From: a virus | Lineage: Duplodnaviria; Caudoviricetes | Virus record (IMG/VR): IMGVR_UViG_3300025653_000041 | Coordinates: 1-58,718 of that record | Direction: 5' to 3' (one strand) | Length of the DNA: 58,718 nt | Shown: piece after piece, positions 1 to 58,534 of the stretch | Position numbering within the stretch: position 1 is the first letter of the stretch | How the letters are laid out: each line of letters opens with the position of its first letter | Made by a program: the position numbers and the translations under genes | Notes under the pieces: model-generated | What the model was told of the DNA's origin: nothing | What the model saw: the letters and a program-made list of their open reading frames with translations, nothing else | The model's database searches: none

Positions 1-496
1 TCTACTACGCCCACTAGGTGAAGGTTTCTTCCGCTTTAACATGCAGTTTGACTTTGACCCTGAAATTAAAGGCGACTTAGAAGTTAAGGCACGTGGAACT
101 GAAAGTCTTATGGCTAACGAAGTACGTAGCCAGCGTTTGATGCAGTTCTTACAAGTAGCAAGTAGCCCAGCACTTGCACCTTTTGCTAAGTTCCAATATG
201 TAATCCGTGAGATTGCAACATCACTTGACTTAGACCCCGACAAAGTAACCAACAATATGGATGAAGCTGCTCTGCAAGCAGAGATTATGAAAGGCTTCCA
301 AGCACCTGCACAACCAGAACAAGGTATGGCTACTGGTAGTCCAATGGACCCAACTGGCGCAGGTGGTGGTAATATAGGCACAGGACAAGTTCCTGTACCG
401 GGTGAACAAGGATTTAGTGCAAATGGACAAGAAGCAAATACTCAGCAGCCTCAAGCCGCTGGTGGGCAACAACCACCAATGGGAGGCATTCAATAA
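1..496 (+). CDS. portal protein, C-terminal fragment (5' truncated)
   Basis: Near-identical to the C-terminus of the full 711-aa ORF 53607..55742 that follows terminase. Confidence 0.85.
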   Translation, partial: LLRPLGEGFFRFNMQFDFDPEIKGDLEVKARGTESLMANEVRSQRLMQFLQVASSPALAPFAKFQYVIREIATSLDLDPDKVTNNMDEAALQAEIMKGFQAPAQPEQGMATGSPMDPTGAGGGNIGTGQVPVPGEQGFSANGQEANTQQPQAAGGQQPPMGGIQ

Positions 497-3834: not shown

Positions 3835-3841
3835 AAAAGAG

Positions 3842-3869: not shown

Positions 3870-3889
3870 TATAGTCATGTATGATGTAA

Positions 3890-5623: not shown

Positions 5624-5636
5624 ATAACATAGTATT

Positions 5637-5670: not shown

Positions 5671-5686
5671 ATTATAAGGATGCACA

Positions 5687-35631: not shown

Positions 35632-36510
35632 TTAAGTGCTTTTACCATGAGATTTACGTGCTGTCAATGCATTATTTGCAGAGGCATACGTATTTTTCAT
35701 GTAAGGTTTAACTGACTGTGGGTTACTATGTCCTGTTACCGACATGATTTGTCCCATAGACACACCAGCTTCGACCATCTGTGTCGTACCAGTGCGCCGC
35801 AAGTCCATCAGTCGTAACTCGTCAGGCAGTCCAGCTTCGCGCATGACAGCCCTTCCAGCTTTCGATAGCCTCTCCATGCTGTATGGGTGGTACTCGCCCT
35901 GTGTGGGGCTTGTACGCGGAGCAACGTAGCTTTGAAAGCCAAAGTCTTGCTCCTGCTGGGTCAGCATCTCAAGCAAGTCATCTTCGATAGGCAAAGTTAC
36001 CTCTGCCCTACGCTTAGACTGCTCAAGATACAGCTTCTTCTCAGGTAAATCAAGGTTATCCCATGTCAATAAGCGCATGTCACCTAGTCGCTGACACCAC
36101 TCATAGGCCATGTGTACGATAAGTCCAAGGCTACGCCACTGAAACTCACTGTATGCAGTGTCAAGGAACTGACGCACATCATCCTCAGACCACACAACTT
36201 TTCGTTGTGGTGCAGTCTTACGTCTGACGTTAGCGAATGGGTTCACCTCTGCATACTCCATCTCAATAGCGTAGCGATAGACGATAGATGAAACAGTACA
36301 GACATGGTTGGCGAGGCTGATACCCCGCGCAACCCACTCCTCATACGCATGTTTAGCTTGCTTGCTAGTGAGTTCGTCAAACTTTACATCGGCAAAGTTG
36401 TCAAGCATTACACCAAGAAAGTATTCATAGTCTTTCTTAGACCTGTCGCGTAACATATTGTAATCATTAGAAGTATAATACTTCTGTACTAAATCATCTA
36501 CCGTAATCAT
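35632..36510 (-). CDS. tyrosine integrase/recombinase
   Basis: QRLGD (R), QSK (K), DLRRT (R), TGH, PY catalytic residues. Confidence 0.85.
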   Translation of the reverse strand: MITVDDLVQKYYTSNDYNMLRDRSKKDYEYFLGVMLDNFADVKFDELTSKQAKHAYEEWVARGISLANHVCTVSSIVYRYAIEMEYAEVNPFANVRRKTAPQRKVVWSEDDVRQFLDTAYSEFQWRSLGLIVHMAYEWCQRLGDMRLLTWDNLDLPEKKLYLEQSKRRAEVTLPIEDDLLEMLTQQEQDFGFQSYVAPRTSPTQGEYHPYSMERLSKAGRAVMREAGLPDELRLMDLRRTGTTQMVEAGVSMGQIMSVTGHSNPQSVKPYMKNTYASANNALTARKSHGKST

Positions 36511-37826: not shown

Positions 37827-38028
37827 CGTCTTTTACATCTTCGGCGTACTCATAGTCTGCCCAATACTTAGTCTTGGCGAATGCACCAATCCCACGCAAT
37901 GTATATTCAGCATACTGCAATTCACACACTTGGTTGTATGTGATAGGCAGTTTTTCATCGGTAGTTATGCCAATATCTTTTATTAGATTGATTACTTTCA
38001 GTAGTTTCTTGCGGTCATGTTCAAGCAT
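37813..38028 (-). CDS. hypothetical early protein
   Basis: GGAG SD, coupled. Confidence 0.55.
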   Translation of the reverse strand: MLEHDRKKLLKVINLIKDIGITTDEKLPITYNQVCELQYAEYTLRGIGAFAKTKYWADYEYAEDVKDDDDD

Positions 38029-38488
38029 ATTGGTTCTCCTCTTGCATCATTTCAGTTATACCAAACTCGTCATCAAGTTCTGGGCGTACCTCACCGATAC
38101 TCTCAATGTCAGCAGTTGACCAATCAAAACCATCAACATACTCACCAACGTACCCCCACCCTTCATCAAGGTATCTTGCATTTATCTCATAGCCCATGTC
38201 TGTCAGCTTGTCAAAGACAGGGATAGGTGGTGACCATGCAGTGTAGAAGGTCATGGACAATGTGTTAGCATCAATGCGAGTGCAGTGCGTCTCATAGATG
38301 TCCCACTTCGTACCCCAATTATCCAGCCGCCACTCATACCAATCGCCACCATCAAGCAGGGACTCGTTCATAGGGATGATGTGTTGCAGTAGTGAAGCAT
38401 CGTCTGTGTTCATCACATTGTAGATGTCATCAATCTTCTGGCTGTCAGCGTGTGACAGGATTACTCTGTTATCTGTATGATTAGGCAT
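38021..38488 (-). CDS. DUF1281/YubB ferredoxin-like domain protein
   Basis: MPNHTDN...WYEWRLDNWGTKWD...FYTAWSPP...YLDEG. Confidence 0.75.
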   Translation of the reverse strand: MPNHTDNRVILSHADSQKIDDIYNVMNTDDASLLQHIIPMNESLLDGGDWYEWRLDNWGTKWDIYETHCTRIDANTLSMTFYTAWSPPIPVFDKLTDMGYEINARYLDEGWGYVGEYVDGFDWSTADIESIGEVRPELDDEFGITEMMQEENQYA

Positions 38489-38663
38489 ATTGGTTCTCCT
38501 CAAATTTACAACGTACAGTATAGTAAGCCATTAGCATTGCGGCAATCTCTGGGAATGATTCCCAATCAGGTTTTCCACCTGTCTCAAACATATAATCAAT
38601 CTCAGTGTCCATTGCGACTAGCATGGCGTTGACTTGTTTTGGTGGTAGGTTAAGTGTTATCAT
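38481..38663 (-). CDS. hypothetical early protein
   Basis: SD AAGGAG, coupled. Confidence 0.55.
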   Translation of the reverse strand: MITLNLPPKQVNAMLVAMDTEIDYMFETGGKPDWESFPEIAAMLMAYYTVRCKFEENQYA

Positions 38664-38808
38664 TGTTTGTCTCCTTATCTAAGATAGCCCAATACTGGTC
38701 AAATGTATATACTTGGGTATCGGTTTCAACTTCCATTGGGTATGCACCAAAATGTTCATAATGGTCAAGCACATATTCTTTGATGGCTTCAAAATCATCA
38801 GTCATCAT
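38650..38808 (-). CDS. 52-aa hypothetical protein (not in ORF track)
   Basis: MMTDDFEAIKEYVLDHYEHFGAYPMEVET...; SD AAGGAG. Confidence 0.55.
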   Translation of the reverse strand: MMTDDFEAIKEYVLDHYEHFGAYPMEVETDTQVYTFDQYWAILDKETNNDNT

Positions 38809-39007
38809 TTTCATTCTCCTTCTTTGGATACATTTGTTCGGCAGTGTAGTATATCACTTCCCAATTAATACCAATGCAAGCATCGTGTCTGTGTTCTATT
38901 GCCTGTAGTACATCAAGGGCTTGTTCATCAGTCAGCCATTCACATTCTTGTTTCACATCTTCGGCTGACCAGATGATTGCAATTTCATTGTCCTGTAGTT
39001 TCATCAC
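38798..39007 (-). CDS. hypothetical early protein
   Basis: WSAEDV...LTDEQALDVL...HDACIGINW. Confidence 0.6.
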   Translation of the reverse strand: MMKLQDNEIAIIWSAEDVKQECEWLTDEQALDVLQAIEHRHDACIGINWEVIYYTAEQMYPKKENENDD

Positions 39008-39170
39008 TATTCTCCCACTTTATGTTGAGTTCAATTTCATTCCATGCAGATTCATAAGCGGCATCCCAACTAATGTGGTATCCTCTGGATACATCTTCGT
39101 CAGCCATTAAGATTGCCCAACGGTTAATGCAAGGCTCATGGTCTAGTGGTAAATTAAGTTGATTAGTCAT
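38985..39170 (-). CDS. hypothetical early protein
   Basis: SD AAGGAG. Confidence 0.5.
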   Translation of the reverse strand: MTNQLNLPLDHEPCINRWAILMADEDVSRGYHISWDAAYESAWNEIELNIKWENSDETTGQ

Positions 39171-39321
39171 CGTCTGTGTTCTCCTTTGGATACCATACGT
39201 CTACATCACATCCACATTTAGGACAGTGCAAGCAAGTCCTCATGCTGTAGAAATCTTCTTCATCTGATACGTCATGGTCAATACCCCATATCAGTTCTGT
39301 CTTACAGTGCCAGCAGTTCAT
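39163..39321 (-). CDS. 52-aa zinc-ribbon protein (not in ORF track)
   Basis: MNCWHCKTELIWG...HCPKCGCDV. Confidence 0.6.
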   Translation of the reverse strand: MNCWHCKTELIWGIDHDVSDEEDFYSMRTCLHCPKCGCDVDVWYPKENTDDD

Positions 39322-39542
39322 TCTTCTAGCTCTACATACGCAGTGCTGTAGTCTTGGTCACCATACGCCCAGCCACCATCGTTTTCCACATCTATGTCAA
39401 CACCAATCAGGTGCATGGTCTGTTCCCTTGCCATCTCACCCGCTTTTACTTCTGCTTCTAAGACATCGTATGCCTCAATCTCAAAGTTGCGGTCATACCA
39501 AATCTCAAAGTCAATCTTTACGTTGTATAGTTTTTTATCCAT
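39318..39542 (-). CDS. hypothetical acidic early protein
   Basis: Coupled ORF. Confidence 0.5.
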   Translation of the reverse strand: MDKKLYNVKIDFEIWYDRNFEIEAYDVLEAEVKAGEMAREQTMHLIGVDIDVENDGGWAYGDQDYSTAYVELEE

Positions 39543-39717
39543 CTGTTTCAAACTCCTTAACAAACTCTAGTTCAATGTGTGCATTAGGGTACAAGGCTTG
39601 CGCCATGTCCATTGCATGTTCAACAGCATGATTCCATACTGACTCAGCCAATGGCTGTGGGTGTACATTGTACACACCACTGACGCCATCCATCTTGATA
39701 CCGATTTCCCAATACAT
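39535..39717 (-). CDS. hypothetical early protein
   Basis: Coupled ORF. Confidence 0.5.
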   Translation of the reverse strand: MYWEIGIKMDGVSGVYNVHPQPLAESVWNHAVEHAMDMAQALYPNAHIELEFVKEFETDG

Positions 39718-39718
39718 A

Positions 39719-40126
39719 TTATGCTACCTTCCTGATTGCCTTACGTCCACGCTTGCCACGAGCAAGGTCACGCAGGTTGTCGATTTGAAGTGTACCAATC
39801 TCAACAGAGATAGGCTTGCGGTTCTTGCGGCGTACAGCCTTGCCAAGTGCCTTGTGCATTACATCAAGTGCCTTGAGTACAATAGCACCAGCATCACCAT
39901 GAATGAAGCCACCACTGTCAGCCTTAGTCTCACGAGCAAGCGGCAGGATAGCACGATACAGGTTGTAACGGCCTAGAGACACGCCATGATACTGCTCATA
40001 CAGTCTTTCTACTTTACCCAGCTTGGCCTCAATCTGAGGTGTTGCAAGTACTTGTCCTGTCATACCTGTTGAACGCTTGTGATATGTGCCAGACTTGATG
40101 GTGTTCTCAATGTTAAGTGTTGTCAT
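39719..40126 (-). CDS. basic hypothetical early protein
   Basis: Strong SD AAAGGAGA; 135 aa. Confidence 0.65.
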   Translation of the reverse strand: MTTLNIENTIKSGTYHKRSTGMTGQVLATPQIEAKLGKVERLYEQYHGVSLGRYNLYRAILPLARETKADSGGFIHGDAGAIVLKALDVMHKALGKAVRRKNRKPISVEIGTLQIDNLRDLARGKRGRKAIRKVA

Positions 40127-40148
40127 AATAATATCTCCTTTGTGTTGG

Positions 40149-40553
40149 TTAGTTGGTTAGTCCGCTGTCGGACTTAGGGTTGTTGCTTTGGTAAGCCCAT
40201 ACACATGGCCTACCTTCGGATTTACCGACAACGATGGTGTCAATGTCGGTAACAGATTCACCTGTATCTCTGAACACAAAGGTGTCATTGACATAGGGAT
40301 TGTATGTGACAGGTCTGCAAGTATCTTGCATGAAAGCCCTAGCATCCAAGGTTGATACTGTGCCTACAGCAAAGGCGTGAACATTCTTCTTGCCTTCACG
40401 TCTCACCTTTTCTTGCCCAGCTTTGCGAACAACAAACTTGCCAGCAGATAGGACGCAAGTAGTCTCATGTCTGATTACTCTGCCTGTCTTGCGGTCTTGT
40501 ACAGACCAACATTTCTTATGAAGATTCCAATATATTCTTACTTGGTTACCCAT
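40149..40553 (-). CDS. conserved phage protein
   Basis: YWNLHKKCWSV...KKNVHAF...TYNPY motif family. Confidence 0.65.
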   Translation of the reverse strand: MGNQVRIYWNLHKKCWSVQDRKTGRVIRHETTCVLSAGKFVVRKAGQEKVRREGKKNVHAFAVGTVSTLDARAFMQDTCRPVTYNPYVNDTFVFRDTGESVTDIDTIVVGKSEGRPCVWAYQSNNPKSDSGLTN

Positions 40554-40698
40554 AGCTTTGCTCCTGTGCTATCTGAGTGTTACGCCTTGCAGTACGTCTT
40601 ACATTCTGCTTGCGCTTGTTGTAACTACGCCAATGGTCACGCTTGCCTTCTGGCTTAGTTGTCTTTTGGTTCTTCATGTTGTCTAGCTTGATTTGCAT
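40546..40698 (-). CDS. 50-aa basic protein (not in ORF track)
   Basis: MQIKLDNMKNQK...; overlaps both neighbours. Confidence 0.4.
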   Translation of the reverse strand: MQIKLDNMKNQKTTKPEGKRDHWRSYNKRKQNVRRTARRNTQIAQEQSYG

Positions 40699-40810
40699 TG
40701 TGCTTATCTTTCTTTCGATTGTATTTGGTTTTGTCAGGCACTACTTGTGAACGTCTGCGATTATTCTGTAGGAGTGCCTTTGCTACAGGATTGATTGTCT
40801 TAATACGCAT
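40655..40810 (-). CDS. small basic protein (NPVAK...KYNRK motif)
   Basis: Start after GGAG SD; MRIKTINPVAKALL...KTKYNRKKDKH. Confidence 0.6.
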   Translation of the reverse strand: MRIKTINPVAKALLQNNRRRSQVVPDKTKYNRKKDKHNANQARQHEEPKDN

Positions 40811-40857
40811 TGTCAATTCTCCATTAGTCCGCTGTCGGACTAGTCTAGTATATCTAA

Positions 40858-40932
40858 GTAACAATATATACTTCACTAAAGTATCAGTATATATGTTACA
40901 TAAGATATACATAAGGTTTTTCAGCTTGTCAA
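40858..40932 (-). promoter_or_regulatory. promoter plus hairpin with ACTTTAGTGAA loop (copy A)
   Basis: TTGACA-17-TATATC followed by a 14-bp stem with a bulge. Confidence 0.6.
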
Positions 40933-41579
40933 GCGATACCGTGTAACTTTCTCCAAGTCACCCAAGTGATAGCTTGCAACTCATACGCTTTCAATCGCTT
41001 GCCGTTGACACGACAACGTGATGCCGCAATGCGGTACGCATCTTGAAGATTGCGATACTCGACAACACCGATATTGGTTTTGTTGTCAGTCAGATTGACA
41101 CGTTCATTGTAAGCAATGTTACGTGCATGACCATCAATGGTACAGGTATCATCACCCATGATGTTTTCGTAGAAACATACAATCTTCTTGCCATTGAGAA
41201 TGGTTTTGACTTCATCAACAATAACGGTGTCATGTTCGGAATACCGCATTGGCATCTGCTCAAGGATAGACCATGCTTTCAGCTTCATGGCATTGTATGT
41301 ACATACTGATACATCTTCGGGCTTGCCGCCATTACGCCATGCCGCAATCAAGTTGTCAGCATTGGTGACATTGATAGCCCAGCGATTGTTTGGTGACAGT
41401 GCCGCCACGACACCAACAACAATGTATTCTGGCAAGTTGTACTTGTCAGCCATGATGCGGCATTCTTCATACGCTTCGGCGTACCATGCAATGCCATGTG
41501 CTACATCTGCTGGCTTTGCCTTGCGCCGCATAGCAATGATATTCTTGACAGCAAGTGCCATATTAAATTCGGTTTTCAT
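40929..41579 (-). CDS. conserved phage protein, possible HhH glycosylase-like fold
   Basis: WY...VVAALSPNNRW..N...CTIDGHA...LQAITWVTWR. Confidence 0.6.
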   Translation of the reverse strand: MKTEFNMALAVKNIIAMRRKAKPADVAHGIAWYAEAYEECRIMADKYNLPEYIVVGVVAALSPNNRWAINVTNADNLIAAWRNGGKPEDVSVCTYNAMKLKAWSILEQMPMRYSEHDTVIVDEVKTILNGKKIVCFYENIMGDDTCTIDGHARNIAYNERVNLTDNKTNIGVVEYRNLQDAYRIAASRCRVNGKRLKAYELQAITWVTWRKLHGIA

Positions 41580-41851
41580 TACACATTCTCCATGTTTGGA
41601 ACATCAATTTCAATTACTTTCCATGCCGCCCAGACTTCGCCTGTCTCAGCATGTACTACAGCACAAGTGCCATGAGGCCAACGCCAATTTATGATTGCAT
41701 TGGATTCCCATTTCCAGCCCATAGCTTCGGCACATTTTTCTTCGGCAGATTCAGATGCAATTTCCTGTGCCTCAAACACATCATTACATACCACTGGCAT
41801 AGGTTGCCAATCCCACGTCATAGTCCATTCCATTACAATAAACTGTTTCAT
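41579..41851 (-). CDS. hypothetical early protein
   Basis: Start MKQFIV after GGAG SD. Confidence 0.55.
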   Translation of the reverse strand: MKQFIVMEWTMTWDWQPMPVVCNDVFEAQEIASESAEEKCAEAMGWKWESNAIINWRWPHGTCAVVHAETGEVWAAWKVIEIDVPNMENV

Positions 41852-41864
41852 TACACCCACTCCA

Positions 41865-42101
41865 TTAAAATCTGGTAGAATCTTGGTCACTATATAGTGG
41901 GTCAGGGTAAGTATTACCCTTGTCACTATATACAATAAGGTCATTGTCAAAGTCAATATCGCCATATGACCTATAGTCATGGTAAGAGTGGATAAAGTCA
42001 GGTTTACCAAACACTCTCACCGCCGCGCTGTACTGCGCATCTGTACGGAATCCAACAAAATGCACAGCGGCATAGTAAGTATCAAAACATCTAGCAGTCA
42101 T
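41865..42101 (-). CDS. hypothetical early protein
   Basis: VHFVGFR...AVRVFGKPDFIH; flanked by a 19-bp direct repeat. Confidence 0.6.
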   Translation of the reverse strand: MTARCFDTYYAAVHFVGFRTDAQYSAAVRVFGKPDFIHSYHDYRSYGDIDFDNDLIVYSDKGNTYPDPLYSDQDSTRF

Positions 42102-42370
42102 TACACCCACTCCATTTCATAAGCATCTTCAAGCCAACGCATAGCTGTAGCTATATCAGGACAGCCACTGTCCATGCAAGAATTAATTGCATCATCTTCT
42201 AGCTTGCGCTGATGACGTAGTTCCTCATCAAGCATACGTTGAAGCGTAGCAACCTCAGACTGTAGGTCTGTGATAGAACACAGGTCATAGTTCATGCCAC
42301 GTGGCCTTACACCATGTACATCCTTGAACAAATCCCACAAGGTCTGTAGTAATTCATCTTTGTAAGTCAT
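42101..42370 (-). CDS. hypothetical early protein
   Basis: WDLFKDVHGVRPR motif; GGAG SD. Confidence 0.6.
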   Translation of the reverse strand: MTYKDELLQTLWDLFKDVHGVRPRGMNYDLCSITDLQSEVATLQRMLDEELRHQRKLEDDAINSCMDSGCPDIATAMRWLEDAYEMEWV

Positions 42371-42421
42371 CTAAAACTCCAAGTTGTTAGTCCGCTGTCG
42401 GACTAGTTAAGTGTTATATAA

Positions 42422-42486
42422 GTAATACATACTTCACTAAAGTATCAGTATGTATTACGTTATACACTATACCAAATTCTTGTCAA
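42422..42486 (-). promoter_or_regulatory. promoter plus hairpin with ACTTTAGTGAA loop (copy B)
   Basis: TTGACA-16-TATAAC followed by a perfect 12-bp stem. Confidence 0.65.
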
Positions 42487-42724
42487 TCATCCTTTGCTTC
42501 AAGTCAAACAATGCTTGCATTTGTGCTTGCCGCTTTGCATCTGCCGCAATCTTGGCATCATACTCAGCTTGCCAAGCATCAGCTTGACCCGTCACATAAA
42601 CATGGAAATCAGGCCGTGTCTCAGGCTCATAGCTACGGCTATAGGCTTGAGTATCCATGCTACGCCAGCTTGAGCCTAACGGCTTGTGCTTACCCATATC
42701 TACGATTGCACCACGTTTAGCCAT
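42467..42724 (-). CDS. hypothetical early protein
   Basis: Start MAKRG after GAGG. Confidence 0.55.
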   Translation of the reverse strand: MAKRGAIVDMGKHKPLGSSWRSMDTQAYSRSYEPETRPDFHVYVTGQADAWQAEYDAKIAADAKRQAQMQALFDLKQRMIDKNLV

Positions 42725-42953
42725 TGTTTCTATACCTCTCAATAATTTCATCTTCGATGCGGAACTGTCTAATCCGCAAAGCACTCTCATAAAAACACAA
42801 ACCCATTGCCCAAGTCATAAAGCTAATGCAAAGCATTATTCCTGCAGACATGGCATCATGTAGCACAAGGATAATGGGTGATGATGCAAACGCCATGAAC
42901 GCTATACACCACCAGAACAGGCAACAAATGCTATGGAAATATTCTCTAATCAT
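42717..42953 (-). CDS. small 2-TM membrane protein
   Basis: Two hydrophobic segments; GGAG SD. Confidence 0.55.
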   Translation of the reverse strand: MIREYFHSICCLFWWCIAFMAFASSPIILVLHDAMSAGIMLCISFMTWAMGLCFYESALRIRQFRIEDEIIERYRNNG

Positions 42954-43015
42954 AATTTAATACTCCGTATTAAGCTAAGTCCGCTGTCGGACTAAGAAAA
43001 GGTAGACTGTAGGGA

Positions 43016-43648
43016 TTACCCTACAGCCTCAAAAGGTACAACTTCGTTGTCTTGTTTAATCATACCAATAGCATTTGCTATTGCAATCTCAAAATCAGCT
43101 ATGCTGATATTATTCATTTCTACTTGCAGTAGAACTTCAAGTGCCAAATCTTCAGCAGTCTTTTCAGACTGTACAGAGGACTTGTCCTCAATCTGCTTAA
43201 CCTCATCTTGAGGTTCAACAGGTGTTTCAACCTCTGGTTCAACAATCTCTTCAACCTTTGGGTTGACAATCTTATCGACTGCTTTCAGCAAATCTTTCAT
43301 GCTACAAATCGAAGATTTCTTACCAAGCAAATCGTTTTCAACGATTACAGAGAAGTTCTCAAAGAACTTCATGGCTTCACTACGGCGTTGCTTTGCAACG
43401 GTATGAAGATTGGCATCTTTCAGCAAAGCTGAGTCAGTACGATTACCACCGGACTCTGTCCGTAGCTTTACAAGTATTTCTCCAAGGGAGAACCAAAAGC
43501 CACCAAACTCACAGAGTTTCTTGAAGCGACTGACATCACCTTTGGTGATTGACTTATCCCATTGGGATAATACTAAGCCTTTGTCTTGGAGAGTGTTATT
43601 AGCTTCAGCTAATTGAACAGAGAACGATTTTGAAGTTGATTTAGCCAT
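43016..43648 (-). CDS. first early gene, hypothetical
   Basis: 210 aa, SD AAGGA, first ORF of the minus-strand arm. Confidence 0.7.
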   Translation of the reverse strand: MAKSTSKSFSVQLAEANNTLQDKGLVLSQWDKSITKGDVSRFKKLCEFGGFWFSLGEILVKLRTESGGNRTDSALLKDANLHTVAKQRRSEAMKFFENFSVIVENDLLGKKSSICSMKDLLKAVDKIVNPKVEEIVEPEVETPVEPQDEVKQIEDKSSVQSEKTAEDLALEVLLQVEMNNISIADFEIAIANAIGMIKQDNEVVPFEAVG

Positions 43649-43681
43649 GATATTTTCCTTTTATCTATCTTTAGGTTTTAT

Positions 43682-43724
43682 AGGGATATATCCCCTTTCA
43701 CTAAAGTTCAAGGGGTATATTCCT
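43682..43724 (-). promoter_or_regulatory. hairpin with ACTTTAGTGAA loop (copy C)
   Basis: Same 11-nt core as copies A and B but with a different stem sequence. Confidence 0.6.
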
Positions 43725-44320
43725 TAAAACCGTAAGAAGATAGTTAAAGTTTGGAGTTTGCCTCGCGCCATCGTCTGCGCTTGCCGTTTCGCTTGTGATT
43801 GCAGGAAACTACGTTTCCGAAATTGGTGCGCGAAACTCGTGACGGGTAGCGAGGTTTGGCGGTGTAGTGTGACATATATGCAACAGTAAACTGTTGACAG
43901 CAAGTCCGACAGCGGACTAAGGACAGCATAGCTGAGTAGTAGAAGCATGAGCATTACAACTTGTTGTAAATCTGTGAAGTCAGCCATTTACAATCATACT
44001 TCGTATGGCAACTGATACCATAACAGTTGTTTACAACTGGCTGAGAACATCATATCTACTACATCTTGATGTAGACGGATGCTTGGTCACTACATCTGGC
44101 TCTAACCATGCGCTACGCAACGCATTATGCGGCGCATCACCCGCGCAGTTAGGTGGCCGGGCAGGAGCCATGCGGGGGTATAGCGTATATATACTTGTAT
44201 ATCTACACAGATTAGGTAAATTCAGTGTTAACCACAGAGGCAACTGTCATTACATATATGCACAAGTATTGTGCAACTGCCTAAAAAATAGGCAACTATA
44301 GATGCATGAAAATAAAAGAC
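43725..44320. other. non-coding divergence region, probable genome termini/DTR
   Basis: Lies between oppositely oriented arms; nested inverted repeats; GC-rich then AT-alternating tract at 44130-44210. Confidence 0.5.
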
Positions 44321-44349
44321 TTGACAACCCCCCTGAAATCTGGTATAAT
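44321..44349 (+). promoter_or_regulatory. consensus sigma70 promoter for the late arm
   Basis: TTGACA-17-TATAAT with extended -10 TG. Confidence 0.85.
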
Positions 44350-44352
44350 TAG

Positions 44353-44500
44353 CACTATAACTAAGACTCACTTAAGTGACTTACTTAAATGTTATTTACT
44401 TCTAATTAAAATACACTATAACTAAGTCACTTAAATGTAGCATTGTTAGCTATCCCTAAATTTTCTTTGCTAATACAGTTTAACTGTAACACTTAAGTGT
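44353..44500. repeat. AT-rich short-repeat array (CACTATAACTAAG x2, ACTTAA x4)
   Basis: Direct repeats plus palindromes TCACTTAAGTGA and ACACTTAAGTGT. Confidence 0.75.
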
Positions 44501-44542
44501 AATGCTATGATTGTCTTATCTGTACAAAGAAAGTTCTTGACA

Positions 44543-44755
44543 ATGGCGAAGAAATCTGTAAAACTATACACAGACAATGTACTTGAAGCATTCTACCATG
44601 CTATCCGTACTAATACATTAGACAAACTCCACATACCCCATAGTGATGTTTTCTACGTGCGACAGGCAGTGGAAGCACACTATGGTCGTTCCTTTACTCT
44701 GAAACACGTAGAAGATGCTATGAGAGCAGAAGGGTGGACAGAGAGGAATGAGTGA
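44543..44755 (+). CDS. hypothetical protein
   Basis: MAKKSVKLY...HIPHSDVFYVR; start uncertain. Confidence 0.55.
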   Translation: MAKKSVKLYTDNVLEAFYHAIRTNTLDKLHIPHSDVFYVRQAVEAHYGRSFTLKHVEDAMRAEGWTERNE

Positions 44756-44955
44756 TGTTTTATGCAGCTATATTAGCCTGTACAATAATAAACCCTGATG
44801 CTTGTGTTGAGGCAGAGGATACTCGTGGTCCATATAAGACCAGAGCAGAGTGTGTCCTACGTGTTGAAGAGATGATAGCAGATACAATACCTCTGTTACC
44901 TCGTATACCTCACAGCTTCAAGTTTAAATGCGCACCTAAAGGAACACCTACGTAA
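44752..44955 (+). CDS. small Cys-containing exported protein
   Basis: Signal-like N-terminus, four Cys, GPY motif. Confidence 0.5.
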   Translation: MMFYAAILACTIINPDACVEAEDTRGPYKTRAECVLRVEEMIADTIPLLPRIPHSFKFKCAPKGTPT

Positions 44956-45248
44956 TGGCTATACCTGAAAGAGTAAAGAATAAAATGAAAGAAGAAGGGT
45001 TGTCTGGCGTTAACAAGCCTAAGAAGACACCTAACCATCCTAAGAAGTCACATTGTGTGATGGCAAAGGAAGGTGACACATACAAGTTTATTCGCTTTGG
45101 ACAGCAAGGCGTATCTGGTGCTGGGAAGAATCCTAAGTCTGCTAAAGACAAAGCACGTAAGAAGTCCTACTATGCACGTCACAATGCACAGGGCAAGCCG
45201 ACCAGCAAGCTGTCAGCGAAGTACTGGTCACATAAAGTGAAATGGTAA
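44955..45248 (+). CDS. basic conserved phage protein
   Basis: NKPKKTPNHPKKSH...IRFGQQG...YYARH...KYWSHKVKW. Confidence 0.7.
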   Translation: MAIPERVKNKMKEEGLSGVNKPKKTPNHPKKSHCVMAKEGDTYKFIRFGQQGVSGAGKNPKSAKDKARKKSYYARHNAQGKPTSKLSAKYWSHKVKW

Positions 45249-45263
45249 TAGGAGAATCAACAG

Positions 45264-46157
45264 ATGTCATTCGCTAAATTTATAGGAGAAATTGCAGAGA
45301 ACGGTATTACTACCGCACGTGCAATGTATGGTAGATTAGATAAAGGTGCTACGGATGCACAAAAGAAACGTATTGATGCTGCTAAAGCAAAATTTAAAGA
45401 GCGTCCTAAATCTCGTAGTAAAACACAATCAGAAGGTATGGCTCAAGACCCAATTGCAGGTGATAAAGTAAAAGGTGCGGTAGACGTACAAAAAGGCAAG
45501 GCTGGTAAGGTAACACAGTCACCGGAGCCGGGTTTCTTACAGCAGCAGCGTAGTGAAGGCTCACGAGCAAGGGCAGAAAGAAAAGTAGAAGCATCTCAAA
45601 AGAAACGTACAGGCAAAACTAAAGCTGAACGCGAAAGCGCAGCCAGACGTGAAGAGGAAATGGAAGCAAAAGATGTTCGTGATACTATGAGTGCTAGGGC
45701 TAAAGCATCTGCTACTGCGCGAGGAAAGAAAAGAAAAGAGCCTGATGATTTTGCCACTGCAATTAATCGCAAGACGGGTGAAATTAATGAGGCGGCGTTT
45801 AATCGCCTAACTAAAAATCAACAAGAGTCTCTTATGCGAGACATTCGTGCAAGATTTAGCACGACACGTGCGCGTGAGATTATGGCTCGTATTGATGAAA
45901 TGGAACCTACAAAAGCAGGTGAGTCAGGTGTTCGTAGACGTAGTGGTAGAGCTAGTGACCGTATTGGAGCAGCACCACGTTCAATGCAAGGACCAAATGC
46001 GAGGTCGCCAAAACCTAGTCCTAGTCGCCGTAAAAGTGGTGTAACTGGACGTGGTGGAGAATCCTTTAATAAGGGTGGTATGCCGCGTAAAGGAAGCATC
46101 GACTACCGTAAAGGTGGTATGGTAAAAGCAATACACAACAATAAAAGAGGTGGCTAA
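45264..46157 (+). CDS. K/R-rich hypothetical protein (possible capsid-internal DNA binder)
   Basis: Very basic; C-terminal FNKGG/YRKGG motifs. Confidence 0.6.
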   Translation: MSFAKFIGEIAENGITTARAMYGRLDKGATDAQKKRIDAAKAKFKERPKSRSKTQSEGMAQDPIAGDKVKGAVDVQKGKAGKVTQSPEPGFLQQQRSEGSRARAERKVEASQKKRTGKTKAERESAARREEEMEAKDVRDTMSARAKASATARGKKRKEPDDFATAINRKTGEINEAAFNRLTKNQQESLMRDIRARFSTTRAREIMARIDEMEPTKAGESGVRRRSGRASDRIGAAPRSMQGPNARSPKPSPSRRKSGVTGRGGESFNKGGMPRKGSIDYRKGGMVKAIHNNKRGG

Positions 46158-53606: not shown

Positions 53607-55742
53607 ATGGCTGAAGAAGAAATTATGATTGAAGACGATGCAATTGCACTAGAAGACACAGATGATTCTGTAGTTGTAGATGCCGATGTATCATCCATCA
53701 TTCCATTTATTTACGAAAGATACCAGCGTTCAGAAGATTATCGTGAACAAGATGAAGACCGCTGGCTACGTGCTTACCGTAACTACCGTGGTCTATATGG
53801 ACCTGATGTACAGTTTACTGAGGCAGAAAAGTCTCGCGTATTTATTAAAGTAACGAAGACAAAGACGCTGGCAGCTTACGGACAGATTGTAGATGTCTTG
53901 TTTGCTAATCAGCGTTTTCCTTTATCTGTAGACCCTACTGAGTTACCAGAAGGCGTGGTAGAAGATGTTAGCTTTGACCCACAGGAACCAGAGCAACTAC
54001 GTGGTGACACAGCACTGTCTACTAGCCCATACGGTTTTGCTGGTGATGGCAACGACTTGGAGCCGGGTGCTACTGCACAGTCACTGCAAGAGAAGCTAGG
54101 CGTAGTACAGAACAAACTAGAGCCAGTGCAGGAGAAACTAAAAGAAGGTCCGGGTAAGACACCTACAGCGATTACATTTAGCCCTGCTATGATTGCTGCT
54201 AAGAAGATGCAAAAGAAGATACACGACCAACTAGAAGAGTCTGGTGCGGGTAAGCATATGCGTAACTCTGCATTTGAGATGGCACTGTTTGGTACAGGTG
54301 TAATGAAAGGCCCGTTTGCTACGGACAAAGAGTATCCTAATTGGGATGATGAAGGTAACTATGACCCACTGTTTAAGACAGTTCCGCAAGTACAGCATGT
54401 ATCAGTTTGGAATTTTTATCCTGACCCTGATGCGAATAACATGGATGAAGCGCAGTACGTAATTGAACGGCACAAGATGTCACGTTCACAACTACGTAGT
54501 CTCAAGAAGCGTCCATACTTCCGTGGTCAAGTAATTGACGAGGTTATTGCTATTGGTGAGAACTACACAAAGAAGTATTGGGAAGATGACCTATCTGACT
54601 ATGCACCTGAGTCTTCTATTGAACGCTTTGAAGTACTTGAGTATTGGGGCATGGTTGATGTCGATATGCTTGAAGAGCAAGACATTACAATACCAGATGA
54701 GTTGCAAGACTTTGACGAACTGCAAGCAAACGTGTGGATATGTAATGGCAAACTTATTCGTATGGTTCTTAATCCATTCAAGCCTAGCAAGATTCCATAC
54801 CATGCTGCGCCATACGAACTGAACCCGTACTCTTTCTTTGGAGTGGGTATTGCAGAAAACATGGACGATACACAAACTCTTATGAATGGGTTTATGCGTA
54901 TGGCTGTCGATAACGCTGTCCTATCGGGTAACTTGATTATGGAACTAGATGAAACTAATCTAGTGCCGGGTCAGGACTTGTCACTATATCCGGGCAAGGT
55001 ATTCCGTAGACAAGGTGGTGCGCCGGGTCAAGCTATCTTTGGAACTAAGTTTCCAAATGTATCATCAGAGAATATGATGCTGTTTGACAAAGCACGTCAG
55101 TTATCAGACGAAAGCACAGGTATGCCTAGCTTTGCTCATGGGCAAACAGGGGTATCTGGTGTAGGCCGTACTGCATCCGGCATATCAATGCTTATGGGTG
55201 CTGCCAGTGGTGGTATCAAAACTGTTGTAAAGAATGTGGATGATTATCTTCTACGCCCATTAGGCGAAGGTTTCTTCCGTTTTAATATGCAGTTTGACTT
55301 TGACCCTGAAATTAAAGGCGACCTAGAAGTTAAGGCACGTGGAACTGAAAGTCTTATGGCTAACGAAGTACGTAGTCAGCGTTTGATGCAGTTCCTGCAA
55401 GTAGCAAGTAGCCCAGCACTTGCACCTTTTGCTAAGTTCCAATATGTAATCCGTGAGATTGCATCATCACTGGACTTAGACCCCGACAAAGTAACCAACA
55501 ATATGGATGAAGCTGCTCTGCAAGCAGAGATTATGAAAGGCTTCCAAGCACCTGCACAACCAGAACAAGGCATGGCTACTGGTAGTCCAATGGACCCAAC
55601 TGGCGCAGGTGGTGGTAATATAGGCACAGGACAAGTACCTGTACCGGGTGAACAAGGATTTAGTGCAAATGGACAAGAAGCAAATACTCAGCAGCCTCAA
55701 GCCGTTGGTGGGCAACAACCACCAATGGGAGGCATTCAATAA
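53607..55742 (+). CDS. portal protein
   Basis: 711 aa after terL; FGTGVMK, FYPDP, FFGVG, AVLSGN motifs. Confidence 0.88.
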   Translation: MAEEEIMIEDDAIALEDTDDSVVVDADVSSIIPFIYERYQRSEDYREQDEDRWLRAYRNYRGLYGPDVQFTEAEKSRVFIKVTKTKTLAAYGQIVDVLFANQRFPLSVDPTELPEGVVEDVSFDPQEPEQLRGDTALSTSPYGFAGDGNDLEPGATAQSLQEKLGVVQNKLEPVQEKLKEGPGKTPTAITFSPAMIAAKKMQKKIHDQLEESGAGKHMRNSAFEMALFGTGVMKGPFATDKEYPNWDDEGNYDPLFKTVPQVQHVSVWNFYPDPDANNMDEAQYVIERHKMSRSQLRSLKKRPYFRGQVIDEVIAIGENYTKKYWEDDLSDYAPESSIERFEVLEYWGMVDVDMLEEQDITIPDELQDFDELQANVWICNGKLIRMVLNPFKPSKIPYHAAPYELNPYSFFGVGIAENMDDTQTLMNGFMRMAVDNAVLSGNLIMELDETNLVPGQDLSLYPGKVFRRQGGAPGQAIFGTKFPNVSSENMMLFDKARQLSDESTGMPSFAHGQTGVSGVGRTASGISMLMGAASGGIKTVVKNVDDYLLRPLGEGFFRFNMQFDFDPEIKGDLEVKARGTESLMANEVRSQRLMQFLQVASSPALAPFAKFQYVIREIASSLDLDPDKVTNNMDEAALQAEIMKGFQAPAQPEQGMATGSPMDPTGAGGGNIGTGQVPVPGEQGFSANGQEANTQQPQAVGGQQPPMGGIQ

Positions 55743-55884
55743 TTATTTGGATGATGCGATAGAGCAACATCACAAAGTAATGGAACAATCAACCGATACT
55801 ATTGCATTACATAGACAGCAAGGTGCAATAGCAGTATTACGTAGACTAAAACAACTTAGGGATGAAATCAATGGCTCTGAATAA
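55669..55884 (+). CDS. small post-portal protein (allele 2)
   Basis: Homolog of 423..638. Confidence 0.7.
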   Translation: MDKKQILSSLKPLVGNNHQWEAFNNYLDDAIEQHHKVMEQSTDTIALHRQQGAIAVLRRLKQLRDEINGSE

Positions 55885-57352
55885 ACAAATGGAAATGTTT
55901 GACGATGGTGGTCTTATGGATGAAGGTGGTACAGTAGACCCTGTATCTGGTAATGACGTGCCGCCCGGTTCTACACAAGAAGAAGTACGTGATGACATTC
56001 CGGCACAGCTAAGTGAAGGCGAGTTTGTATTTCCTGCTGATGTTGTACGCTTTATTGGTCTTAATAATCTTATGCAGATGCGACAGCAAGCTAAGATGGG
56101 ATTAAAACAGATGGAAGAAATGGGTCAAATGGGCAATAGTGATGAAGCTACTATGCCAGATGATTTGCCATTTGATATTAATGACCTTGACATGGAAGAT
56201 GAGTTAGAATATAATATAGGTGGTTTTGTTCCTGCGACTGCACAACAACAACAATATGGTATTAGTGGTATGCAACAAGCTGCAGCACCAACAACAGGTG
56301 TAGCAGCTATACCGCAACAAGCTGCATCACAACAATATGTACAACCAGTGCAAGCTGTAGTACCTACTACTCCTGTGTACACACCTGCAGAAATTCCTAC
56401 TTTTAAAGGCTTTGTAGGGGATAATGTTCCGGGCGTAGACTTTGAATATGTAGAATATAAAAATGAAGCAGGTAATGTTATTCAACTACGTAAAAGTAAA
56501 ACAACAGGTGACTTACTAGACCCTGTACCAGAAGGCTATACGTTTGTAGACCCTGAAGCTACTAAGGTAGAAGAAGCAACTGTAGCACCTACAACACCGC
56601 AGACTACTACTGTACGTGAAGATGGAGGTGATGCTGACCACGCTAAATCAGAAGAAGAAAAGTATGGTCCGGGCGGTGGTAGACTAGGCATTCCGGGTAC
56701 GGATATAATTTATGGAGTATCTTTTGAAAATATGGGTACGTTACCGGGTGTATTTGGGGGTGTACAAGGTGCATTAGGTTTAGCTACAGGTAAACCCCTG
56801 TCATCTGATGCATTAGTTAACTTTAAATTAGATGATGATGTATTTACTTTAACGGGTGATGAGTACAACAAAGTTAAAACTGCATTTGACAATGATGCAC
56901 TTTCAAGAAAAGAAAAACAAGATATTTTTGAAGCTGCTAGGTATGAAGGTAAAGTGCGACAAGCAGAAAAAGCTATAGAAGAAGCAAAGAAAGCAGAAAA
57001 AAGAGTTAAAACTTCTGATGTATTTAAAGATTCAGGATTCCAAGAAACAGGTGGTGATGAATCGGTAGACACATCATCAAAGGGAGCAGCTTTAGAAGCA
57101 AGTCTGAGAGGCTCCCCAACTCCGGGTGGTACAGGTAGAGGACGACAAGACTATTCTGGTGGTTATTCGCAAGATGATACAGCAGGAAATGAAACACCTC
57201 AAGATAGTGGTTTTAGTATGGGTTCTGATTTTAGTGCATCTGAAAGAGATGAATTGGGTCCGGGTGGTTATAACCAAGGTGGCCTAGCTTCTAAACCTAA
57301 ACCAAAGAAAACTAAGAAGATGAAGAAGGGTGGACTAGCTTCTAAAAAATAA
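55871..57352 (+). CDS. internal virion protein (allele 2, no lysozyme domain)
   Basis: Homologous to residues ~253-756 of 625..2895, with a different C-terminal third. Confidence 0.7.
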   Translation: MALNKQMEMFDDGGLMDEGGTVDPVSGNDVPPGSTQEEVRDDIPAQLSEGEFVFPADVVRFIGLNNLMQMRQQAKMGLKQMEEMGQMGNSDEATMPDDLPFDINDLDMEDELEYNIGGFVPATAQQQQYGISGMQQAAAPTTGVAAIPQQAASQQYVQPVQAVVPTTPVYTPAEIPTFKGFVGDNVPGVDFEYVEYKNEAGNVIQLRKSKTTGDLLDPVPEGYTFVDPEATKVEEATVAPTTPQTTTVREDGGDADHAKSEEEKYGPGGGRLGIPGTDIIYGVSFENMGTLPGVFGGVQGALGLATGKPLSSDALVNFKLDDDVFTLTGDEYNKVKTAFDNDALSRKEKQDIFEAARYEGKVRQAEKAIEEAKKAEKRVKTSDVFKDSGFQETGGDESVDTSSKGAALEASLRGSPTPGGTGRGRQDYSGGYSQDDTAGNETPQDSGFSMGSDFSASERDELGPGGYNQGGLASKPKPKKTKKMKKGGLASKK

Positions 57353-57424
57353 TCCACAATTCGTTGGCTACTCATCCCCCACGCCCGACAGTGTGGCTAC
57401 GGTGGCCCCAACAAGGAGAATACA

Positions 57425-58294: not shown

Positions 58295-58534
58295 AAAGAG
58301 TTGACAAGTAGTTATTTATAAGTATAACTATAGTCATGTATGATGTAAACAGGTTAGCTACTTGTTTACATTGTCAATCCGCAAACGACAAAAATCTTCA
58401 AGATTACCTGAATAACATGGCCTATTGAGTACATTAGTTGCAACTCTTGTACAAAATACACCCTACGTTAGACAGCCTCTGCCAAGAATTGTATTGTTTG
58501 CATCTGTACAATCCAAAACAATAGGAGATGGATT

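Follow-up and report, generated by a model that had tools for sequence, protein, structure and literature searches.

The window analyzed here, a stretch of DNA 58,718 nucleotides in length, is the complete genome of an HMO-2011-type (SAR116-phage-like) podophage. As read from the sequence, the early genes of its leftward operon are punctuated by a recurrent cassette composed of a host-type promoter, a long hairpin with a fixed tip, a fixed mini-hairpin, and a ribosome-binding site. The long hairpins are denoted A, B, and C, and the elements are located as follows.

40159-40174, minus strand: mini-hairpin upstream of the gene starting at 40126, preceded by a short GC-rich hairpin
40826-40841, minus strand: mini-hairpin of cassette A, AGUCCG-ACAG-CGGACU (-9.9 kcal/mol, z = -3.6)
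about 40848-40910, minus strand: hairpin A (inverted repeat I1, 25-nt arms), inner stem 40858-40899, outer stem including the -10 box
40885-40873, minus strand: tip of hairpin A as read from the sequence, GATACTTTAGTGA
40933-40905, minus strand: predicted promoter A, TTGACA 40933-40928, 17-nt spacer, TATATC 40910-40905, predicted start near 40898
42389-42404, minus strand: mini-hairpin of cassette B, followed by SD GGAG 42380-42377 and ATG 42370
about 42415-42465, minus strand: hairpin B (inverted repeat I9), perfect 12-bp inner stem 42422-42458, outer stem including the -10 box
42446-42434, minus strand: tip of hairpin B as read from the sequence
42486-42459, minus strand: predicted promoter B, TTGACA 42486-42481, 16-nt spacer, TATAAC 42464-42459, predicted start near 42452
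42978-42993, minus strand: mini-hairpin upstream of ATG 42953
43029-43004, minus strand: terminator-like GC-rich hairpin with T-run, lying before the mini-hairpin at 42993-42978
about 43662-43742, minus strand: hairpin C, inner stem 43682-43724, upstream of the first early gene (ATG 43648)
43709-43698, minus strand: tip of hairpin C as read from the sequence, GAACTTTAGTGA
43903-43918, plus strand: mini-palindrome in the divergent non-coding region

The core motif TTCACTAAAGT occurred exactly three times in the window, at 40872, 42433, and 43697 on the plus strand, and with up to one mismatch allowed there were 7 matches against 1.9 expected, a number reached in 1 of 100 shuffles. An earlier sequence-only reading had delimited the three hairpins by what proved to be their inner stems, for which minus-strand folding energies of -14.3, -18.3, and -20.5 kcal/mol (z = -2.8, -5.1, and -4.6) were obtained for A, B, and C, respectively. 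The sites are real, but their true extents are longer: the AT-rich, bulged arms reach about 25-33 bp, hairpin lengths are given as 63-81 nt, and the full-length folds have energies of -22.4, -23.8, and -30.7 kcal/mol. Hairpin A is the longest of the 14 inverted repeats listed for the window. When the whole window was searched, unfiltered, with a covariance model whose training set included A and B and left out C, only A, B, and C were significant (E = 1.2e-8, 5.9e-9, and 0.003), the next-best match being the antisense of B (E = 0.3). The proposal of a common core carried on differing stems was borne out, and the sequence itself shows both the compensatory change from T-A to C-G between A and B and the GC-richer stem of C. 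The AU-rich hairpins lack a U-tract and so do not qualify as canonical intrinsic terminators. An ordinary terminator-like hairpin does occur at 43029-42978, where it takes the slot held elsewhere by hairpins A and B, ahead of a mini-hairpin and an SD site.

A covariance-model search, of the kind that the sequence-only reading had suggested for marine phages, returned 94 matches at E ≤ 0.05 in 725,198 bases, all 94 on the operon strand; as the related sequences are not independent, this and every other count given here overstates the number of independent events. The hairpin was found in 60 of 80 related IMG/VR loci, in roseophage CRP-1, and in the window, and its range of conservation extends from SAR116-type phages to CRP-1. 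It is restricted to the early leftward operon and has a single orientation. Phages with just 24% identity between their first early proteins still agree in position, orientation, and tip sequence. Among species-representative bacterial and archaeal genomes, none of 24 motif matches was flanked by matching stems.

The stems of these relatives covary. In the first 9 pairs of 34 distinct inner hairpins, 279 of 306 cells are Watson-Crick, compared with 165 ± 10 when partners were shuffled (maximum of 205 in 1000 shuffles). A model-fitted alignment of 41 distinct rows gave 98.0% paired positions versus 87.2% in shuffles and a covariation score of 0.256 versus 0.078, neither value being reached in 500 shuffles, with both-sided changes in four of nine pairs. 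The outer stems behave similarly, that of A alternating between TATATC:GATATA and TATACC:GGTATA, and that of C between GGTTTTA:TAAAACC and, in HMO-2011 and locus L025, GGTTAGT:ACTAACC. Stem GC content among the model matches ranges from 0.11 to 0.36. The tip follows the consensus GA(N)AC-N3-4-GUGA, with loops of 11-13 nt. The loop had been described as invariant, and the tip is indeed fixed; it is not a simple loop, however, because a GA...GA bracket enclosing an AC/GU mini-helix makes it a structured module. Tip variants differ between lineages, and in locus L112 two copies with different stems share the same variant tip. Covarying stems, a fixed tip, one orientation, confinement to the early operon, and conservation as far as CRP-1 together uphold the general idea of a conserved-loop structural element dedicated to early-gene control.

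The 16-mer palindrome AGTCCGACAGCGGACT constitutes a second element, a GUCC...GGAC mini-hairpin that usually lies 10-30 nt before a start codon. The palindrome had been noticed before the SD sites of A and B; further copies had been missed, and the element is separate from the long hairpin and far more numerous. Five exact copies are present in the window (40159, 40826, 42389, and 42978 on the minus strand and 43903 on the plus strand) against 0.23 expected, and none of 100 shuffles reached five. In cassette A, the mini-hairpin is followed by SD GGAG at 40822-40819 and then by ATG 40810. All 80 related loci contain the element. Of 278 distinct contexts, 222 fall within roughly the initial 3.5 kb of the operon, another 52 are at most 500 nt upstream of its first gene, and the remaining 4 are farther upstream. 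An SD site and start codon follow within 60 nt for 142 of 213 mini-hairpins, compared with 63 ± 7 (maximum of 80) for random positions; the other 71 are followed by no recognizable start. The mini-hairpin type is uniform within 76 of the 80 loci and changes in concert between lineages.

The TTGACA promoters proposed next to A and B are present as predictions, but the description of the hairpins as sitting immediately after them misses an overlap, since the -10 box and predicted start fall inside the left arm. The -35 box of A, in turn, overlaps the stop codon of the upstream gene. A sigma-70 scan listed neither promoter because each -10 box ends in C. The pattern TANNN[TC] was taken as the -10 consensus of alphaproteobacterial promoters. 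In relatives, TTGAC occurs at shifted positions relative to promoter A, and the arrangement of promoter B is common to many. Hairpin C has no clear -35 box in the window, and HMO-2011 carries TTGACA-15-TATCTT at the corresponding position. Within the 90 nt upstream, TTGAC was found in 29 of 53 distinct contexts and was missing from 24, the background rate being 0.127 per 90 nt. The full pattern TTGACN-16..18-TANNN[TC] fitted 25 of the 53 contexts and failed in 28. In all 25 fitting cases, the predicted start lies inside the left arm, either 3-13 nt (18 cases) or 29-32 nt (7 cases) upstream of the tip. With the -10 box and start so placed, a cassette's own transcript would be unable to form the full hairpin.

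Comparison of genomes places the cassettes at the joints of gene-module exchange, where they form the best-conserved DNA of a variable region. Homology to relatives stops or resumes at cassette edges (42387, 40932/40915, and 40185): that to L042, L043, and others stops at 42387, at the edge of cassette B, and that to L042 and L028 resumes at 40185. Locus L082 matches cassette B at 100% identity over 68 nt (42467-42400), with flanks that are 65-85% identical or give no match. Two genes are swapped in order in L042.

These features recall the PeSL (promoter-early stem-loop) elements of T4-type phages. A PeSL is reported to consist of a sigma-70 promoter, a stem-loop that lies between the -35 and -10 boxes, covers the -10 box, or stands just upstream of the start site, an SD site, and an ATG; the stem-loops terminate transcription, and PeSLs mediate module shuffling (Arbiol et al. 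2010, PMC2839356; Comeau et al. 2014, PMC4122927). The cassettes resemble PeSLs in their order of parts, with the upstream stop codon followed by a sigma-70-like promoter, a stem-loop at or across the -10 box and start, an SD site, and a start codon. They likewise recur in a variable early region where many genes have no known function, and form islands of high identity at crossover points that flank variable genes. The likeness in promoter holds by prediction for A and B and for the 25 fitting contexts of 53, and that in stem-loop position for all 25. By contrast, the podovirus described here belongs to a different lineage and infects Alphaproteobacteria, its stems are AT-rich arms of 25-33 bp rather than G/C tracts, its tip is conserved and structured, and a second, fixed mini-hairpin precedes the SD site. 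Terminator activity has been shown for PeSLs, whereas the present cassettes are known from sequence. Given that neither descent nor sequence likeness connects the two, the cassettes are classed as PeSL-like in working and not as members of the family. Our leading, though tentative, interpretation, to which we would give a probability of about 0.45, is that they are composite early-operon regulatory units of HMO-2011-type podophages that work as PeSLs do.

Such a unit might operate as follows. Host sigma-70 RNA polymerase would start at the TTGACA/TA...C promoter, inside the left arm, and the resulting transcript would begin with the tip and a shortened stem only. RNA reading through from upstream would hold the entire 25-33 bp hairpin, which may stop transcription, be cut, or shield the 3' end of the upstream message; acting on that message, the full hairpin would insulate neighboring gene modules. 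The tip, in which a G.A/A.G bracket encloses a 2-bp AC/GU helix and a small loop, may serve as one sequence-specific signal and the mini-hairpin just 5' of the ribosome-binding site as another, both read by a putative factor that is probably phage-encoded. Such a factor is suggested by motifs that are uniform within genomes and changed between lineages. Genome comparison shows that the cassettes are, in addition, joints for exchange of gene modules. PeSL logic leaves the conserved tip unexplained, and no reader protein was recognized among the 39 distinct proteins scanned; the scan gave no match to RNA polymerase, sigma factor, RNase III, N, or Q, and the first early protein gave no PDB fold match.

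Two further systems share part of this layout. The early operon of T7 has one promoter cluster at its start and RNase III hairpins between its genes. Like those hairpins, the present ones are long and intercistronic within an early operon transcribed by host polymerase, and their bulged arms of 25-33 bp would supply the roughly two helical turns of double-stranded RNA expected of a T7-type RNase III site. They differ in that a predicted promoter lies inside each hairpin and in that the tip is conserved. In Cluster K mycobacteriophages, the SAS is a short fixed motif at the start codons of a subset of non-structural genes, and an inverted repeat with a 4-13-bp spacer lies ahead of about half of its copies (Pope et al. 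2011, PMC3203893). Resemblances to SAS and ESAS are the fixed motif by start codons, the single orientation, and a consensus that differs between subclusters. However, SAS is asymmetric and itself contains the SD, and its 13-bp GGGATAGGAGCCC is not found here, where the motif is GTCC-N6-GGAC, so that the likeness is one of layout only. ESAS has conserved arms and a variable spacer; the long hairpin shows the reverse, and the mini-palindrome is alike.

Processive antitermination of the nut/put type is an unlikely alternative to PeSL-like units. Here, the tip hairpin, the mini-hairpin, or both would bind a phage protein or RNA polymerase in nascent RNA and render polymerase from the early promoters resistant to terminators inside the operon. 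The arrangement would suit the positions of two hairpins within about 75 nt directly downstream of early promoters, the terminator-like hairpin at 43029-43004, and the small Arg/Lys-rich proteins encoded right after cassette A. The loops of lambda nut (boxA/boxB) and HK022 put sites are likewise specific in sequence and suited to a reader particular to the phage, and the boxB/N pairs of lambdoid phages differ between lineages much as the tip does, being specific in sequence on a freely varying stem and uniform per genome. Nonetheless, own transcripts probably do not contain the full hairpin, with no more than 13 nt of the left arm retained in 18 of 25 given the predicted starts, and three internal promoters make antitermination less necessary. 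In the mini-hairpin the stem is fixed and the loop is variable and sometimes flipped, the opposite of boxB; comparison of 38000-46000 with Rfam covariance models gave no match at E ≤ 1; no N or Q family was found in the 39 scanned proteins; and the small protein after cassette A is ArfA-like rather than N-like. The elements do not fit a lambda-type nut site, with its 5-bp boxB stem, GNRA-like pentaloop, and N, as the loops are of 11-13 nt or of 4 variable nt.

A structure formed at the DNA level seems comparably improbable. The AT-rich inverted repeats could extrude as cruciforms or fold on a single-stranded lagging-strand template, with a protein recognizing the tip in replication priming or origin function, in supercoil-dependent promoter control, or as the hairpin promoter of an unrecognized polymerase. 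Both strands fold about equally, which fits DNA at least as well as RNA, and the stems are nearly pure Watson-Crick, with G.T in 3 and A.C in 1 of 306 inner-stem cells and 1 G.U in 345 of the model-fitted alignment. The 25-33 bp arms overlap the promoter, a fork moving out of the divergent region would use the motif strand as its lagging-strand template, and three large virion proteins (650-1260 aa) match no PHROG family. Position and orientation, however, are tied to gene starts and SD sites, and the fifth pair of the mini-hairpin, which in the operon part is A:U in 126 contexts, G:C in 86, G.U in 8, and A.C in 1, hints at function in the sense strand. No polymerase, HUH, or initiator family was detected among the 39 proteins. 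The hairpin promoters of the N4 virion RNA polymerase have 5-7 bp stems and 3-nt loops and need that virion polymerase. The present hairpins, likewise three in number, share with them fixed loop bases, a place ahead of early genes, and a single orientation, but their dimensions do not fit this type, and no polymerase was recognized among the 39 proteins scanned.

It is also doubtful that the GTCC...GGAC palindrome is a double-stranded DNA operator, a "stoperator"-like site for a dimeric repressor, with the long hairpin a separate matter. Fixed half-sites around a free and sometimes flipped centre, the uniformity and concerted change of type already described, clustering in the divergent control region and early operon, the presence of copies within coding sequence (three of five in CRP-1), and the phage-encoded integrase would all accord with an operator. 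The copies, by contrast, do not overlap the predicted promoters, that of B lying about 45-60 nt after the predicted start, and their excess directly before SD sites and start codons speaks against an operator. The centre has a preferred orientation relative to transcription (ATGT 101 versus ACAT 15; ACAG 29 versus CTGT 1), a 17-nt variant in L028 alters the half-site spacing, and no HTH repressor was recognized.

Selfish or neutral palindromic repeats kept by recombination and template switching, with no regulatory role, are very improbable: quasi-palindrome template switching can yield perfect arms with no G.U intermediates and flip centres, as seen in the copy at 43903-43918 (flipped relative to four of six aligned relatives that keep the palindrome), and the cassettes do sit at recombination joints, but retention of position, orientation, and tip despite divergent early proteins, occurrence of the hairpin in 60 and the mini-hairpin in 80 of 80 loci, and tight placement relative to promoters and SD sites all speak against it.

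To our knowledge, nothing is known of early-gene control in HMO-2011-type phages, and no description of the cassette elements was found in the searchable literature on this group, which did not include the original HMO-2011 paper or supplementary files. The main text of PMC9038755 contains no occurrence of promoter, hairpin, stem-loop, or intergenic, and PMC6918029 contains none of promoter or stem-loop. The hairpin model and the mini-hairpin define a searchable family of cis-elements, the start site inside a hairpin arm offers a testable logic, and the cassettes account for where variable early genes are swapped. If they are PeSL-like units, the PeSL idea would reach beyond T4-type myoviruses infecting enterobacteria and vibrios to include podoviruses whose hosts are marine Alphaproteobacteria. 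A tip that is both fixed and structured and, ahead of the ribosome site, a fixed mini-hairpin would be two added features, and both call for a reader acting in trans.

The gene that follows cassette A (ATG 40810) encodes an ArfA-like peptide. A decidedly speculative extension, which we regard as quite unlikely, is that the tip and GUCC mini-hairpin form an early-mRNA code by which a phage factor cuts or ends messages, and that the ArfA-like peptide frees ribosomes reaching the ends of the truncated messages, without tmRNA tagging. Were this so, mRNA processing would be coupled to ribosome rescue by phage-encoded means in a very abundant marine group; HMO-2011-type phages are reported to be a dominant, widely distributed marine viral group (PMC9038755). 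The ArfA-like gene lies after cassette A wherever a relative keeps both.

The three long hairpins proposed by the sequence-only reading were recovered on the minus strand (sense for the leftward operon). Their shared core is an 11-mer that occurs exactly three times in the window, and all three sites fold. The features concerned are as follows:

40848-40910, minus strand: long hairpin A, the longest inverted repeat found by the repeat tool across the whole window.
42415-42465, minus strand: long hairpin B.
43662-43742, minus strand: long hairpin C.
43004-43029, minus strand: terminator-like hairpin of 11 pairs, six of them GC, followed by a T-run; it lies directly after the first early gene, inside the operon.

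The extents originally assigned to the long hairpins were too short; once outer stems are included, lengths reach ∼63-81 nt, with folding energies of -22 to -31 kcal/mol in the window and as low as -37.6 kcal/mol among relatives. A covariance model was trained on 18 related inner hairpins with the structure specified by hand. In an unfiltered search of both strands of the window, this model gave three significant matches, which were exactly A, B and C, the last being outside the training set. Given that the MAFFT hairpin alignments (A2, A3 and A5) were in the wrong structural register, with RNAalifold returning no structure for A2, pairs were instead counted by script on ungapped arms and on a model-fitted alignment. 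The sample comprised 34 distinct inner hairpins, drawn from the window, from 100 IMG/VR loci (two sets sharing contigs) and from the roseophage CRP-1; a regex match in locus L040 (8770-8806, tip GACACGGCAGTGA) and one unstructured match in L024/L034 were left out as doubtful. The six pairs adjacent to the tip were Watson-Crick in 33-34 of the 34 hairpins, each position showing two or three types of pair, and over the first nine pairs 279 of 306 cells were Watson-Crick, compared with 165 ± 10 when partners were shuffled. The model-fitted alignment, which leans towards the model, agreed on the pairing. Covariation extended to the outer stems of A (TATATC:GATATA versus TATACC:GGTATA) and C (GGTTTTA:TAAAACC versus GGTTAGT:ACTAACC). 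The cassette feature is real, strongly non-random and widely conserved. No Rfam family matched the hairpin region. Strand assignment by folding or wobble was abandoned, the sense and antisense energies being similar and G·U pairs too few, and an alternative fold of B's own transcript, in which the 5' end pairs with the start region, had an ensemble frequency of only 0.03.

The hairpin loop had been described as invariant. Its GA...GA ends and an inner AC/GU pair-former are indeed fixed, but the innermost three to four bases vary (UUUA, GUA, AUA, GUAA, GUUA or CUA). On the simplest reading of these sequences, the tip would consist of two sheared G·A pairs atop the stem, then a 2-bp helix and a small cap. 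In more distant relatives, the equivalent positions have long hairpins with different tips, such as GAATGTTTATGA, GAAATGTATATGA, GATATTTATTGA and GAGTTCTTACGA, the last being present twice in a single locus (L112), each time on a different stem; common to these alternatives are a 5' GA and a 3' (U)GA. Another reading took the tip for a -35 box serving a -10-like hexamer within the right arm. Spacing suits B and C but not A, and in HMO-2011 and L025 the hexamer is replaced by compensating stem changes; this reading was rejected.

A second element, the 16-mer mini-hairpin of general form (A)GUCC-R-N4-Y-GGAC(U), is separate from the long hairpin and far more numerous, being present in all 80 loci, typically at four to six copies each. 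Among 278 distinct contexts, 222 lay within ∼3.5 kb downstream of the first early gene start, 52 in the 500 nt upstream of it and only 4 in the several further upstream kilobases that the loci also cover. In the operon part, 142 of 213 copies were followed within 60 nt by a Shine-Dalgarno (SD) sequence and start codon (63 ± 7 for random positions), and about a third were not at recognizable starts. The fifth pair (n = 222) was A:U or G:C in 212 cases, G·U in 8 and A·C in 1, and the type was identical across all copies within a locus in 76 of 80 loci. The 4-nt centre is variable and sometimes flipped, although one orientation relative to transcription dominates: the divergent-region copy in the window is flipped relative to four of the six aligned relatives that keep a copy there, and HMO-2011 has a cassette B copy whose centre is flipped with respect to the window's. 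Each of the five window copies is preceded by some hairpin, namely A, B, the terminator-like hairpin (43029-43004) or one of two short ones.

The promoters previously noted before A and B were borne out as predicted elements, TTGACA-17-TATATC and TTGACA-16-TATAAC, respectively. Such -10 boxes ending in C are typical of alphaproteobacterial sigma-70 promoters, and the built-in sigma-70 scan missed both because it requires a T at that position. The -10 boxes form part of the hairpin left arm. Across 53 distinct upstream contexts, 29 had TTGAC within 90 nt and 25 fitted the full promoter pattern; in these 25, the predicted start preceded the tip by 3-13 nt (18 cases) or 29-32 nt (7 cases) and was always within the left arm. 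In many cases TTGACA overlaps the end of the upstream gene (its last codons or its stop codon), and it shifts by several bases among relatives while the hairpin block stays put. No clear -35 box was found upstream of hairpin C in the window, where HMO-2011 has TTGACA-15-TATCTT. In the B-type cassettes of L020, L025 and L029, the left outer arm reads TGTG(T/A)ATAA and overlaps the -10 box; it matches the DnaA-box consensus in reverse, which may be chance in AT-rich sequence. Likenesses to DnaA-box, IHF and boxA sites noted by eye in the arms did not exceed AT-rich expectation.

The covariance model found 94 hairpin sites (E ≤ 0.05) among 725 kb of sequence, every one of them on the operon strand. 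These sites fall in CRP-1, the window and 60 of the 80 IMG/VR loci that had been collected with a profile of the first early protein. Even CRP-1, a phage of a Rhodobacteraceae host whose first early protein is only 24% identical to that of the window, keeps the same cassette: a hairpin with an identical 13-nt tip is followed by a palindrome, SD and ATG. In one genome per bacterial or archaeal species, an 18-base tip pattern gave 24 scattered matches, none with stems, which is chance level, and no prophage copy was found among the prokaryotic species representatives. Four RNA runs from one metatranscriptome study hold related-phage contigs that cover 40824-40916 (hairpin A and the mini-hairpin after it) and extend over hairpin C as far as 43766, with the proviso that DNA carry-over is possible and contigs cannot show RNA ends. 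Several contig joints fell at mini-hairpin edges, with sides of <30 nt.

Comparison of the window's early region with 14 relatives by blastn revealed that homology ends or restarts at cassette edges. In the closest relative, L042, homology was unbroken as far as 42387, at the edge of the mini-hairpin of B; the two genes after cassette B were in swapped order (5333-5827 versus window 41866-42365), and two window genes at 41865-40933, one of them DUF7178, were absent. Homology restarted at 40932, the -35 box of A, stopped again at 40550 and resumed at 40185, shortly ahead of the following mini-hairpin. Cassette B includes 68 nt that are 100% identical in L082, the flanks otherwise being 65-85% identical or without a match. 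The genes following cassette B vary among relatives; the gene following cassette A is the same in most.

The cassettes are a variation on a known kind of phage regulatory cassette. PeSL stem-loops are described as terminating transcription, and PeSL cassettes as mediating module shuffling, in T4-type phages (PMC2839356, PMC4122927). As reported for those elements, an upstream stop codon, a host-type promoter, a stem-loop over the -10 box and start, an SD and an ATG follow in order, and copies of the cassette recur at crossover points in a variable early region (PMC2839356). Given this match in layout, repetition and crossover position, a PeSL-like logic was adopted, with a probability of roughly 0.45. 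Read-through RNA would form the full hairpin and be stopped, cut or protected at its 3' end, and RNA started within the cassette would be unable to form it. Beyond the PeSL plan, these cassettes add a fixed structured tip and, ahead of the SD, a fixed mini-hairpin. Their layout is also reminiscent of the SAS/ESAS repeats of Cluster K mycobacteriophages, described as being of unknown function (PMC3203893).

Several properties weigh against a reading at the RNA level: G·U pairs are almost absent from the stems, both strands fold equally well, no U-tract follows the hairpins, and a third of the mini-hairpins lie away from recognizable starts. For these reasons, a hairpin or cruciform acting in DNA stands as a real rival, albeit an unlikely one, and so, with similarly low probability, does the mini-palindrome as an operator-like element. 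Antitermination of the nut/put type is a further real rival that we consider improbable to the same degree. Scanning of 39 distinct proteins against Pfam and/or PHROGs gave no match to N, Q, RNase III, RNA polymerase or sigma factor families; the host polymerase therefore presumably serves early transcription. The same protein scan left three large virion proteins without a family assignment.

Since tip and mini-hairpin are uniform within a genome and different between lineages, the data point to a trans-acting reader of both, most simply phage-encoded. As a candidate reader, the first early protein (43648-43016) was examined and matched neither a Pfam nor a PHROG family. The labelled Atlas cluster closest to it is DUF3102 (label on 29% of members, score 0.92), and the protein's all-helical AlphaFold model (pLDDT 80) gave no PDB match at E ≤ 0.001, the best being 0.99.

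Directly after cassette A lies a 51-aa gene (40810-40655, minus strand), predicted to encode an ArfA-like peptide (alternative ribosome-rescue factor A). Its family comprises 54 ORF matches in 81 searched loci. Pfam ArfA (PF03889) was matched by 9 of 22 aligned members (best E 3.5e-7), and six of seven matches of the family profile to PDB sequences were ArfA chains, over the KKGKGSY-RK motif (best E 0.0074). The window's own copy is without GKGS and matches only DUF7230, below the DUF7230 cut-off. In Escherichia coli, termination or RNase III is described as truncating the arfA mRNA itself at a stem-loop (PMC8012679); a link between the gene and the cassettes is speculation. No paper on ArfA ribosome rescue in a phage genome was found in the literature searched.

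The window, at 58,718 bases, corresponds to a single complete IMG/VR virus record. Its genes point rightward over 1-25272, leftward between 43648 and 26014, and rightward once more from ∼44500. Small genes of unknown function open the leftward operon, which further along encodes a cell-wall hydrolase, an integrase, a primase-like protein, a DnaB-like helicase, a family-A DNA polymerase and ribonucleotide reductase. The Puniceispirillum (SAR116) phage HMO-2011 is ∼79% identical to the window across 42465-44400. The record end (55246-58718) repeats its start (1-4259) in three blocks of 90-95% identity; hence the true genome size is ∼55 kb, as in HMO-2011, the contig continuing round a genome that is circular or permuted and on into a variant strain. 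Given that a tyrosine integrase gene lies within the early/replication operon (35632-36510, minus strand) and that CRP-1 also has one, a temperate lifestyle with a repressor is possible.

The rightward operon is headed by a consensus sigma-70 promoter (44321-44349, plus strand; TTGACA-17-TATAAT with TG before the -10 box). Its leader (44369-44499, plus strand) contains three CACTTAA(G/A)TG palindromes, at 44369, 44428 and 44490, which resemble the commonest inner hairpin stem of the relatives (ACACTT/AAGTGT) and may be operator sites. In the divergent region, which contains several small hairpins, non-coding blocks at 44155-44300 and ∼44005-44035 are strongly conserved, the block at 44161-44237 still being 79.7% identical in CRP-1; the HMO-2011 ORFs annotated there, gp72 and gp73, overlap each other on opposite strands. 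This conserved region may serve as an origin or packaging signal, or encode a small RNA.
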